From the IMG/VR virus record IMGVR_UViG_2667527717_000003: a stretch of DNA of 5,946 bases, one strand, 5' to 3'. Below, in pieces: positions 1-4,750 of the stretch. The stretch is from a virus (taxonomy: Duplodnaviria; Heunggongvirae; Uroviricota; Caudoviricetes). The notes under the pieces were generated by a model that saw only the letters and a list, made by a program, of their open reading frames with translations, was not told where the DNA came from and did no database searches. A program made the translations under genes and the position numbers. Within the stretch, counting starts at the first letter, position 1. The number at the start of each line of letters is the position of its first letter.

Positions 1-87
1 ACGTAACAGACAGCGGCTCCCGCAGTTAACGGTGCAGGAACTCCAGACCGCTTTCTCTTCTACCGGTACCTCTGCCGCTCGGACCAT

Positions 88-1200
88 TTGGGAAAATGGC
101 AGAGTGANNGCACNNNNNGNNNGNNNGAGCATCGGCATAAGAAGATTGCTGAGACGACAGGCTATAAGCCCGGTGCGGGACGTATTATCGAGCGTTTCGA
201 CGGGCGGTTTGAGATAAACGAATTTTATATGCCTGAGCATCCACGTACAGCGGATACAAGTAAGGTGTCCACGTTCCTTAATCATATGGCGTATCTGGTA
301 CCTGATGCCTGGCAGCGCGAGTTTTTCATCGCCCGTCTGGGGTGGATGGTTCAGCGTCCGGAGCGTCGATGCCCGATTTCTATTCTGCATGTGGCTTCCG
401 CACATGGTACGGGCAGAGGATGGGTCAGCCAGTTAATGGAGCGCGTGCTTGGTCCGTGGAACTGTGCTCGTACTCGCATGAAGATCCTGTGCGATAACCA
501 GTTCCATGACTATCTGTACAATACGCTTCTATGCACCATTGACGAGGTGCGCGAAAATGATAAGCGGTATGAGGTGAACGATAAGATCCGTGACGTGCTG
601 ACAGAACCACGGTTTGAAGTGAACCGCAAATATGGCAGCAAAAAAACGATGGATATATACACCGGCTTTCTGTTCTACACCAACCACTTTGATGCGCTGG
701 CGCTGCCAGAGGAAGACCGACGTATCGCTGTGCTGGGGGGCCCTGACTTCGCCGCAACTGAAGAGCATTACGCCAGCCTGTACGGTGCGCTAAGCGACAG
801 CGACTTTATCGCCCAGGTGTACTGGTATCTGATGGGCGTTGACCTGTCTCGCTTTAACTGGCAGCGCGCCCCCGAGACGAAAGAACGCCTTCTGATGATT
901 GAAAGCAATAAGAGCGATGTGGAGGCTGCTCTTATTGAAATCCTGGATAATCCGCCTGTGCCAGCAATGACTTATCAACAAATTGTTAACGCAATACTGG
1001 CAGAAGCAGGAATGGATGTAGAAATTAACCAGAAGCATATTACTCGCATTTTGAAAGAAAGAACAAAGCGGGAACCCGTACGCGTAAAAATTGACGGGTT
1101 TGTATATAGGATTTGGATTCTTGTAAAAAATAACGATTTCAGCAACGAAGAATTGCGCGAAATATATAAATCTTGCGAAATTTTGCAATCTGGATTGTAA
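88..1200 (+). CDS. P-loop NTPase with SF3-helicase-like motif order (D5 / P4-alpha primase-helicase C-terminal domain-like) and an AT-rich C-terminal putative DNA-binding domain; probable replication initiator/helicase. 5' boundary unresolved.
   Basis: 370-codon ORF ending at TAA 1198-1200. Glycine-rich loop HVASAHGTGRGW followed by a Walker-B-like hhhhDE block (LLCTIDEV) and a motif-C-like block (IRDVLTEPRFEVNRKYGSKKTMDIYTGFLFYTNH). Codon usage looks coding from ~128 onward. Start is uncertain: TTG at 88 has no obvious RBS, the first ATG is at 229, frame 1 has a TAA at 4-6, and frame 2 is open from the window start to 217 with N-masked bases at 108-127 in between. Confidence 0.6.
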   Translation: MGKWQSXXXXXXXEHRHKKIAETTGYKPGAGRIIERFDGRFEINEFYMPEHPRTADTSKVSTFLNHMAYLVPDAWQREFFIARLGWMVQRPERRCPISILHVASAHGTGRGWVSQLMERVLGPWNCARTRMKILCDNQFHDYLYNTLLCTIDEVRENDKRYEVNDKIRDVLTEPRFEVNRKYGSKKTMDIYTGFLFYTNHFDALALPEEDRRIAVLGGPDFAATEEHYASLYGALSDSDFIAQVYWYLMGVDLSRFNWQRAPETKERLLMIESNKSDVEAALIEILDNPPVPAMTYQQIVNAILAEAGMDVEINQKHITRILKERTKREPVRVKIDGFVYRIWILVKNNDFSNEELREIYKSCEILQSGL

Positions 1201-1202
1201 AA

Positions 1203-1466
1203 AGGTGACGGCTAGGTGACGGCAAAACGCTTAAGCGTCACCTTAAAAAGTATATATAAAACAATGGGAAATGTGCTAAAGGTGACAGGTGACGGCAGAA
1301 TTTAAAACTATATACGCGATAGTGTGTATTTTAGGTATTATACGATCGCTTATATATAGAGAACTAAAATCAACCGTCACCTGTCACCTAAAACATCTTC
1401 AGGCCTTATATGGCGCGCTTTGCAGCAGGTGACGGATATGTAATTACGCGTCACCTAGCCGTCACC
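1203..1466. repeat. Array of ten GGTGAC/GTCACC sites (extended consensus AGGTGACGG), five direct and five inverted, mirror-symmetric about position ~1335 and flanking an AT-rich core; candidate iteron/origin or multi-site operator region
   Basis: Direct GGTGAC at 1204, 1215, 1281, 1288, 1428; inverted GTCACC at 1237, 1376, 1383, 1450, 1461. The 17-bp block 1204-1220 (ggtgacggctaggtgac) is the exact reverse complement of 1450-1466; the 16-bp block 1280-1295 is the exact reverse complement of 1374-1389. AT-rich core 1296-1373 carries tatata runs. Spacers between mirrored sites are not themselves palindromic. Confidence 0.8.
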
Positions 1467-1515: not shown

Positions 1516-1806
1516 ATGTCAAAGATATTCCGCCAATGTATGCCTTACGGTATCCGCAAAACAGCTGAGGGGGCTTGGGAAGCATTCAACAGAGACTACC
1601 AGCCCTTAGGGGAGGCTTTTTTCTTCAAAAGAGCACTAACGCAGGCCACTCGAGATGTGTTGGCGCCACCGCCGGTAACTCAGCGCGACGACTGTGTATG
1701 GCTGTATAGCGATATCGAGCACCCGATGCACTCTGAGGCTTACTGGAAAGCGTATTGCCAGCGGCTTAAACATCTTTCTAACCTCAAAATGAAAGATGAA
1801 CGGTAA
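1516..1806 (+). CDS. hypothetical phage protein, 96 aa, function unknown
   Basis: ATG at 1516 preceded by GAGGA (1504-1508) at ~7 nt spacing; TAA at 1804-1806. Lies directly upstream of Q with a 25-bp gap, same strand. No family recognised by eye. Confidence 0.65.
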   Translation: MSKIFRQCMPYGIRKTAEGAWEAFNRDYQPLGEAFFFKRALTQATRDVLAPPPVTQRDDCVWLYSDIEHPMHSEAYWKAYCQRLKHLSNLKMKDER

Positions 1807-2254: not shown

Positions 2255-2660
2255 TATCCAGTAATCAATCACGTAAGGGAATCAGATGGTATTCAGGATT
2301 GCCGTAAACACCTGACGGCTTCAGGTATCAAGGTAAGATAAAAAATAGTTGTGGAATTCCAAAAAGCCGATTAGCCTGATATCTGTTGAAAACAGTTCAT
2401 CACGAAGAGGCTTCCGCAAGGGGGCCTTTTTTATTGCCCCATTCTGGGGAAAAGTTAATAAAACAGGGCTTTCGCTGCGAAAAAACGCTATGCAGTTTTT
2501 GCCCTTTTTTATGCACCTTTTATTCACTCGAATTTCGTCATTCTGGACCACTTAAGTTGATTAAATAGGCCTTTCATCGCAAATCTATTGCGAGCGGGGA
2601 TCGTGTGGTTCCTATAACGTACATTATGTTAAATAACTTCCTTTTTTAACAAATTTAACA
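2255..2660 (+). promoter_or_regulatory. Q-to-holin intergenic late-control region, expected to hold the late promoter (PR'-equivalent) and the Q utilisation (qut) site; exact promoter not resolved
   Basis: ~400 bp AT-rich non-coding DNA between Q and an intrinsic terminator. Several weak sigma70-like candidates, e.g. CTGACG(2312-2317)-N16-TAAGAT(2334-2339), TTGCCC(2434-2439)-N16-TAATAA(2456-2461), TTGCCC(2499-2504)-N16-TATTCA(2521-2526). Only small TTG/GTG-initiated ORFs without RBS in this stretch. Confidence 0.35.
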
Positions 2661-4177: not shown

Positions 4178-4750
4178 ATGACTAAGAAGCTGAAAGCAAA
4201 ACACGAGGTGTTTTGTCGCGAGTTTCTTGTCGATCTGAATGCTACACAAGCAGCTATTCGCGCAGGCTACGTCTCCAGGCGAGCACATGTTACGGGGGCT
4301 GAACTATACGGTAAACCTGAGATACGCGCCCGTATTAACGAGCTAAAGCAGGAGCGTATTGATCAACTGGGCATTGATGCGAATTATGTGCTGATGCGAC
4401 TGGTTGAGATCGACAGGCTCGATGTGGCTGACATCCTAGAGGACGATTTAAGTATTAAGCCTCTGTCTGCGTGGCCGGAATCGTGGCGTCGGTACCTGAG
4501 TGGATTTAACCTCGCTGAAATGTTTGAGGGGCGAGGAGATGACAGAGAAATGGTCGGGATCCTTAAAAAGATTAAGTGGCCTGATAAGGTTAAAAACCTT
4601 GAGTTGCTTGGGCGTCATGTTTCTGTTCAGGCGTTTAAAGACAACGTCAAAAATGAAGTGACTGGCGCTGATGGAGGACCAGTCAGAACAGAAATTACCA
4701 ACTTAACGCCGGAGCAGGCTGCAGAGGCGTATAGAAAAATGATGGGCTAA
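4178..4750 (+). CDS. terS: terminase small subunit (Terminase_2 / P27-like TerS family)
   Basis: 190 aa. N-terminal [24 protein letters not shown] matches the hallmark I recall for this family ([22 protein letters not shown]). Sits directly upstream of a TerL gene, with stop TAA 4748-4750 two nt before the TerL ATG. Confidence 0.85.

Follow-up and report, generated by a model that had tools for sequence, protein, structure and literature searches.

Can a replicative helicase work when its P-loop carries an arginine in the place of the catalytic lysine? Few catalytic residues vary as little as the Walker A lysine, and its exchange for arginine is the standard 'binds, cannot hydrolyse' mutation. 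The question is raised by a 5,946-nucleotide stretch of DNA from a tailed phage (Caudoviricetes; IMG/VR record IMGVR_UViG_2667527717_000003), hereafter the window, whose plus strand encodes at 127..1200 the C-terminal part of a primase-helicase with the P-loop S-A-H-G-T-G-R-G-W. A preliminary description, made from the letters of the window alone, took the protein for a helicase of the superfamily 3 (SF3)/D5/P4-alpha type and saw in it either an ATPase-dead initiator or loader that acts on an adjacent GGTGAC array, or a non-canonical P-loop. The evidence assembled here favours the second interpretation: we think it rather probable that this is a functional initiator-primase-helicase in which the arginine would serve as the phosphate ligand of a non-canonical Walker A motif.

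Read directly in frame +1, the codons run gct (A, position 394), tcc (S, 397), gca (A, 400), cat (H, 403), ggt (G, 406), acg (T, 409), ggc (G, 412), aga (R, 415), gga (G, 418) and tgg (W, 421), which confirms the motif at 397..423 with its arginine codon AGA at 415-417. The arginine is R97 of the window protein and R493 of the full protein. As first described, no lysine is close by: the nearest ones lie at a distance of 54 residues on the upstream side (DTSK) and of 21 on the downstream side (RMKIL). phmmer aligns the segment sahGTGRGWv with gkqGTGKGLl of the helicase of phage NrS-1, and in an AlphaFold model of the window protein the region folds as a strand (85-89) that runs through a loop (90-96) into helix 97-108, so that alignment and model concur in making HGTGRGW the Walker A equivalent. 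In NrS-1 the Walker A motif is 447-GKQGTGKG-454 with the catalytic Lys453, and the enzyme that carries it has helicase and (d)NTPase activity and hydrolyses all dNTPs plus ATP (PMC7102993). Held against the pattern GxxGxGK[S/T/G], the present protein has no Walker A motif with a catalytic lysine: arginine occupies the lysine column and the first glycine is replaced. The earlier view, that the glycine spacing is kept while Lys gives way to Arg and Ser/Thr to Gly, is thus right about the arginine but needs correcting on two counts. The first glycine of GxxGxGK is lost as well, at a column that is variable across the clade, and the glycine after the arginine is not anomalous by itself, since the active NrS-1 enzyme has one in the same place (GKG). 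The nearest Lys-type relatives carry Ser or Thr after the lysine.

The arginine is a property of a whole clade. When HMMER was run exhaustively against 1.84 billion cluster representatives, it returned 7,858 matches, roughly 2,200 of them at E<1e-10 and 196 at E<1e-30, and the best 150 matches, together with five extra homologues, make up the alignment from which the conservation counts in this text are taken (representatives of clusters at 50% identity, with counts over 151-153). Arginine stands at the Walker A lysine column in 150 of 153 representatives, far more often than chance would allow, within the consensus h-G-t-G-R-G-w and at identities down to 26-31%. Around it, G96 is found in 153/153, G94 in 149/153, G98 in 141/153 and W99 in 122/153, and beta-strand 1, which leads into the P-loop (ILHVA, 382..396, plus strand; assigned by DSSP in the model), keeps Leu87 in 143/151. 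A word-indexed search gives arginine in 56 of 56 DUF5906-type matches; such a search with the helicase half alone retrieved 13 proteins. When HGTGRGW was back-translated and sought in 2.9 million IMG/VR viral contigs, at least 120 sites were found, with 34 confirmed family members among the matches listed; back-translated HGTGKGW gave 14 sites and no family member. Among 50,697 deposited phage genomes, the Arg-type occurs solely in four E. coli phages, and the other deposited phages with the domain have lysine. No description of a natural Arg-for-Lys Walker A motif, in this or any helicase family, was found in the searchable literature, which is absence of evidence and not proof of novelty.

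Across 69 loci the arginine is encoded by AGA (20), AGG (18), CGT (13), CGC (11), CGA (3) and CGG (3), the AGR codons of 38 loci being one transition away from lysine. That all six codons are in use implies that the arginine has been retained through many synonymous changes. These loci derive from a trimmed 12-sequence alignment, and one of the two search patterns demanded GTGRGW; their arginine counts are biased by that pattern, and they serve for codon usage and genomic context only. Alignment and codons show the arginine to be clade-wide and under purifying selection. Lysine is back only in relatives of 25-30% identity with a canonical GxGKS (L067, L069-L072) and in three members of low rank that carry GK[ST] (P0212, P0249, P0262), which, with the P-loop columns excluded, are 38-43% identical to Arg-types as against 19-32% to outgroup Lys-types. 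The P-loops form a graded series, from GxxGxGKS through SxxHGxGK[ST] and HGTGR[ST] (11/153) to HGTGRGW, and the basic residue is paired with the one that follows: RG 141, RS 6 and RT 2, compared with KS 7, KT 1 and KG 1 among the Lys-types, NrS-1 being the KG. Lysine and arginine states may have been interconverted during the evolution of the family.

Could the motif be a sequencing error, or does it come from a helicase that has become a pseudogene within a defective prophage? The copy in the window invites the question. It holds only residues 397-753 of a 753-amino acid protein (the C-terminal 357 amino acids, with the stop codon at 1198-1200), and the phage gene begins in the middle of the open reading frame (ORF) at base 127, where the alignment to phage 689R2 starts. 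Bases 1..107 are a fragment of chromosomal ynfF (selenate/tellurate reductase subunit), which matches ynfF in E. coli genomes at 100%, has no alignment to the phage gene and forms the left edge of the truncation. Read directly, the join between the two (108..126) consists of single bases among Ns. Either the two were joined during scaffolding or consensus building, or a deletion took away the left half of the prophage. A related viral contig (L032, IMGVR_UViG_2848317263_000007) moreover has an in-frame TGA at the arginine codon at about 4260-4300 (HGTR*GW); here a nonsense change from CGA to TGA has probably occurred in a prophage copy that is decaying. From base 127, however, the window is 100% identical to the deposited genomes of phages vB_EcoM-606R2, -689R2, -611R5 and -683R1, and prophages in complete E. 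coli chromosomes are likewise identical to it. The intact gene (L001:4813-7074; URC08840.1 in ON470582, WP_001551498.1), to whose product the window protein is 100% identical, has the same motif in an uninterrupted 753-amino acid ORF in all four phages and in those chromosomes. With the arginine present in 150 of 153 clusters and written in six codons, error or decay is refuted as far as the motif goes and matters only for the truncated copy in the window; as an explanation of the arginine it has next to no credibility.

Conservation extends to the rest of the active site. The drift of Walker B glutamate, sensor 1 and arginine finger by which a pseudo-ATPase would be recognised is not seen, as these residues are 95-100% conserved in the Arg clade. 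The Walker B strand LLCTIDEV (526..549, like the following motifs on the plus strand; NrS-1 LIVHLNEV) keeps its glutamate, E140 at 544-546, in 152/153. Motif C, or sensor 1, F-L-F-Y-T-N-H (667..687; NrS-1 FIINSNE) keeps asparagine N186 (682-684) in 148/152 and Ser or Thr at residue 185 in 149/152. Both motifs are therefore retained, as had been proposed. The arginine-finger pair E-D-R-R (712..723; NrS-1 dsDRRfnv), equivalent to Arg555/Arg556 of NrS-1, has R198 in 145/152 and R199 in 152/152, while the DNA-binding beta-hairpin of the central channel, E-V-N-R-K-Y-G (616..636; NrS-1 yINRKnm), the equivalent of the NrS-1 'KN' hairpin, has N166 in 142/153 and K168 in 151/153. The roles of the hairpin and of the Arg555/Arg556 fingers have been described for NrS-1 (PMC7102993). 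With the catalytic residues all held over about 150 clusters, a decayed ATPase is not what one would expect. A relocated, compensating lysine in the style of the WNK kinases was looked for and rejected: the clade has no lysine of its own, and the sole near-invariant one, K168 of the hairpin, is common to the Lys-type relatives. G505/N508 (LGxxN) was likewise discarded as a clade-specific feature, being present in Lys-type relatives too.

Profile and fold agree on the family. The window protein matches Pfam DUF5906 (PF19263, NrS-1-like SF3 helicase) with 54.9 bits (cut-off 27.6) over profile positions 3-114 of 114, and the full-length protein matches it with 53.2 bits. The PHROG family phrog_1156, annotated 'DNA primase', is hit at E=6.5e-49 over positions 483-847 of 855, and NCBIfam has no family for the protein. 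Among the sequences in the PDB, phmmer finds the NrS-1 helicase (6K9C/6K9E, E=4e-8) as the sole solved relative. The model of the window protein, computed with AlphaFold (AF2) from 128 sequences, reaches a predicted local distance difference test score (pLDDT) of 95.4; its top Foldseek match is NrS-1 CTR 6k9c (E=2.5e-19, template modelling score (TM) 0.69), followed by the PrimPol C962R of African swine fever virus (ASFV), MPXV E5, VACV D5, the SaPI5 primase-helicase and PriRep1. The assignment to the SF3/D5/P4-alpha type is borne out, and profile, fold and all motifs save for the Walker A lysine make the protein a DUF5906/NrS-1-like SF3 helicase. Neither profile nor structure places the Walker A motif elsewhere or speaks against a P-loop NTPase.

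The intact 753-amino acid protein has in addition a PrimPol domain (PF09250, 31.4 bits, residues 75-185), which lies outside the window copy. In the full protein, an N-terminal archaeo-eukaryotic PrimPol is thus followed by an NrS-1-like SF3 helicase (DUF5906), and a winged-helix-like tail forms the C-terminus. The NrS-1 polymerase gp28 (6K9C/6K9E/6LRB) is alike in fold and motif order and also has its PrimPol at the N-terminus. The two have in common G-T-G-x-G with a glycine after the basic residue, the Walker B x-E, the N-R-K of the 'KN' hairpin, the S/T-N of sensor 1 and the D-R-R fingers. The NrS-1 protein differs in possessing Lys453 and the first glycine, and is only about 18% identical; its source is a deep-sea phage of Campylobacterota of the virulent type, and the present protein, in contrast, is part of a temperate cI/cro module with its own iteron origin downstream. 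The PrimPol half (residues 1-330; L001:4813-5802) is 97% identical to that of E. coli prophage proteins (P0046 and P0050) with a VapE-type helicase as C-terminal half, which retains the lysine. The attachment of this PrimPol half to either a DUF5906 or a VapE-type half reads, in the alignments, as a clean domain swap near residue 330. The Walker A motif of P0046 is itself deviant, SQQGKNKS, with Asn for the second-last Gly and Lys-Ser kept.

What would such a protein act on? Four nucleotides after its stop codon begins an origin-like array (1204..1466) of 10 GGTGAC(G/A)G iterons, arranged in nested inverted sets (inverted pairs I1 and I2) around a TATA-rich centre at about 1300-1360 with a GC content of 0.30-0.35. 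GGTGAC occurs 14 times in the whole window against 2.15 expected, and 10 of the 14 occurrences fall in 1204-1466. The layout after the stop codon (about +4, +15, -36, +82, +89, -177, -184, +231, -252 and -263) is near-constant in at least 13 divergent loci, while the iteron itself varies with the protein, relatives having GGTAACA, GGTGTCA, GGTGGCA, GGTTGCA, GGTTCCA, GTAACAC, GTCACAC, GTCCCAC or TGACACA; GGTAACA is the form seen in Serratia and GGTGGCA that in Xenorhabdus. This co-variation of protein and iteron points to a cognate initiator/origin pair, for which the comparison of loci provides good evidence, and it strengthens the earlier suggestion that the protein would act on the adjacent GGTGAC array. 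Inverted arrays downstream of the gene are also found in some Lys-type relatives (L069, L071).

The candidate for iteron recognition is the C-terminal helical, winged-helix-like tail (880..1197, plus strand), which the model resolves into helices 252-260, 264-274, 283-294, 302-313 and 340-356 and strands 280-282, 318-322 and 325-331. The co-variation and an analogy with the alpha protein of phage P4 suggest this role. P4 alpha combines in one polypeptide a primase, an SF3 helicase and a C-terminal winged-helix tail that binds short origin iterons. The likeness is one of function: P4 alpha has a primase of the DnaG/TOPRIM type and a canonical GxxGxGK[ST], and the searches made reported no sequence similarity to it. 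In the same comparative spirit, the inverted iterons would fit the assembly of SF3 helicases on inverted sites flanking an AT-rich region, as in papillomavirus E1 and SV40 large T antigen; these differ in having a Lys-type Walker A motif and no primase domain, and in belonging to eukaryotic viruses.

The genomic setting lends this scheme a frame. The full-length gene directly follows those of a cI-like repressor and cro, and the leftward early operon of the phage (ON470582, L075 1-9500, outside the window) encodes a family-A DNA polymerase, a DUF2800/PD-(D/E)XK nuclease, an Enc34-type single-stranded DNA-binding protein (SSB) and an SNF2-type helicase. The last, a superfamily 2 (SF2) protein, is the only other helicase, and no second ring helicase is encoded by the phage. 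Salmonella phage Chi offers an instructive counterpart. Its chi_042, a 'putative primase', has the like architecture of PrimPol plus DUF5906 and matching companions (DUF2800 nuclease, Enc34-type SSB, the family-A polymerase PolA, VRR-NUC and SNF2 helicase). It differs in its canonical Walker A motif, GAHGSGKTT, and is about 28% identical in the helicase core; Chi is virulent and has another gene order. In prophages of Avibacterium and Limnobaculum, the Arg-type genes, at 36-46% identity, lie within a replication module arranged as in the present phage. Given a Lys-type protein in the Chi module, in the other Lys-type phages and in the VapE-type swap, the Arg-type domain fills the slot of a normal primase-helicase.

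In the favoured reading, the protein would be made from the early rightward operon just downstream of cro and would bind its own iterons in the origin that begins 4 nt past its stop codon. It would assemble as a ring on the inverted iteron sets beside the AT-rich centre, probably as head-to-head rings like other SF3 initiators, melt and unwind the DNA, and prime synthesis for the phage family-A DNA polymerase. R97/R493 would replace the Walker A lysine as ligand of the beta/gamma-phosphate, followed by Gly instead of Ser/Thr, and NTP would be hydrolysed with arginine in the role of lysine. The broader claim, that the entire clade consists of SF3 primase-helicases which hydrolyse NTP and unwind DNA through a catalytically competent arginine P-loop with Gly for the Mg-ligand Ser/Thr, we hold with more reserve, at roughly even chances.

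Several points weigh against this reading. Walker A Lys-to-Arg mutations (RecA K72R, Rad51 K191R and many helicase mutants) usually keep nucleotide binding and abolish or greatly slow hydrolysis. The glycine after the arginine removes the usual Mg-coordinating hydroxyl, and column 139, ahead of the Walker B glutamate (541-543), which would hold the first acidic residue, is not conserved (E62/D29/H28/P11/A6; Asn in NrS-1). The conserved glutamate and arginine fingers could be retained for nucleotide-dependent assembly and not for turnover, with motor activity supplied by host DnaB or the phage SNF2 protein. Three Lys-bearing members may nest within the Arg clade, with moderate support (neighbour-joining bootstrap 20-30 of 40, with a numerical warning for the most divergent pairs), and would be either early branches or reversions. 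Finally, no biochemically characterised Arg-type member was found in the literature or among deposited phages. As to the magnesium site, the variable column before the Walker B glutamate, with Asn in NrS-1, indicates that DUF5906 already has an unusual Mg environment, and the glycine that follows the basic residue of Walker A adds to this impression for the family at large.

Much of this is the case for a nucleotide-binding initiator or loader that is hydrolysis-deficient or very slow, in which ATP would act as an assembly switch for origin recognition, melting and priming, and unwinding would be left to host DnaB or the phage SNF2 protein. Engineered K-to-R mutants typically bind without hydrolysing, the Mg-ligand Ser/Thr is replaced by Gly and the first Walker B acidic residue varies, an SNF2 helicase is always alongside the gene, and each Arg-type context examined is that of a temperate cI/cro phage, for which slow, regulated initiation could be advantageous. 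If turnover were dispensable, however, the near-invariance of the glutamate, the sensor-1 asparagine, both arginine fingers and the hairpin for single-stranded DNA translocation over about 150 clusters would be unexpected. Nor does the SNF2 protein look like a replacement specific to the Arg-type, as the Chi module pairs it with a Lys-type protein; SNF2 proteins are, besides, dsDNA translocases and not replicative ring helicases. We regard a hydrolysis-deficient initiator as a serious but unlikely alternative. The invariance of the arginine in the clade, the near-invariant catalytic residues and hairpin, and the Lys-type orthologue in the Chi module all argue against an ATPase-dead protein as the leading interpretation of the locus; the non-canonical P-loop, which the preliminary description offered as its other option, is the better supported.

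A further alternative is that the P-loop has been repurposed, the arginine having shifted its ligand to another nucleotide or dNTP preference, to polyphosphate or to a DNA backbone phosphate, so that no classical ATPase site is left. Hydrolysis by the NrS-1 helicase already extends beyond ATP to all dNTPs (PMC7102993), and the tight coupling of Arg to Gly (RG 141) suggests a remodelled phosphate/Mg site. The unchanged glutamate, sensor 1 and trans-acting arginine fingers, however, fit ordinary NTP hydrolysis at a subunit interface, and no data point to another ligand. This possibility seems to us decidedly improbable.

Whichever way the activity falls, about 150 clusters of phage replication helicases have a fixed arginine with the other catalytic residues kept, in the slot of Lys-type orthologues. 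If the proteins are active, the P-loop can be rewired to arginine, and the clade would break the rule that a Lys-to-Arg exchange in Walker A puts an end to hydrolysis; if they are inactive, it would be an initiator family without a motor that yet keeps its catalytic residues, which would change how such replication modules are read. The pairing of R-G versus K-S provides a direct mutational handle (R493K/G494S) on arginine tolerance. In addition, a self-contained cassette of initiator and origin is delimited in temperate phages of Enterobacterales, Pasteurellales and Alphaproteobacteria, and should aid the annotation of replication modules that are not lambda-like, such as the Eru types of Shiga toxin (Stx) phages. 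In Eru10 of the Stx phages, only a PrimPol-motif protein and Q lie between cI and the late genes, and the ATPase motif is not discussed (Fagerlund et al. 2022, PMC8951638). This minimal layout resembles that of the present phage, a likeness of layout only.

The window as a whole spans the junction between the early-right and late regions of a lambda-organised temperate E. coli phage, in the order helicase gene, 96-amino acid ORF, Q antiterminator, holin, lysozyme, Rz-like protein, small terminase and large terminase. A literature search for the vB_EcoM-...R phages found no paper. Rfam and tRNA scans of the window gave no match, and a promoter/terminator scan of it no enrichment over shuffles. 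The leftward early operon (L075) further encodes a protein whose TIR domain is of the CAP12/Pycsar-effector kind and which may act in defence or counter-defence. The 96-amino acid ORF (window 1516-1806), between the origin and Q, is without Pfam or PHROG match, and as the prophages of Avibacterium and Limnobaculum (L081, L083) lack it at the equivalent site, it is a lineage-specific insert. The 510-nt gap between Q and holin holds two terminator-like sites, each a hairpin with a T run, at window positions 2400-2430 and 2660-2690. One of them, GGCUUCC-GCAA-GGGGGCC ahead of a T run, was seen by reading only, whereas the scan, too, picked up the other, AAGGTTCGC-TATG-GCGAACTTT ahead of a T run; either could be a terminator that is read through by the Q-modified polymerase.

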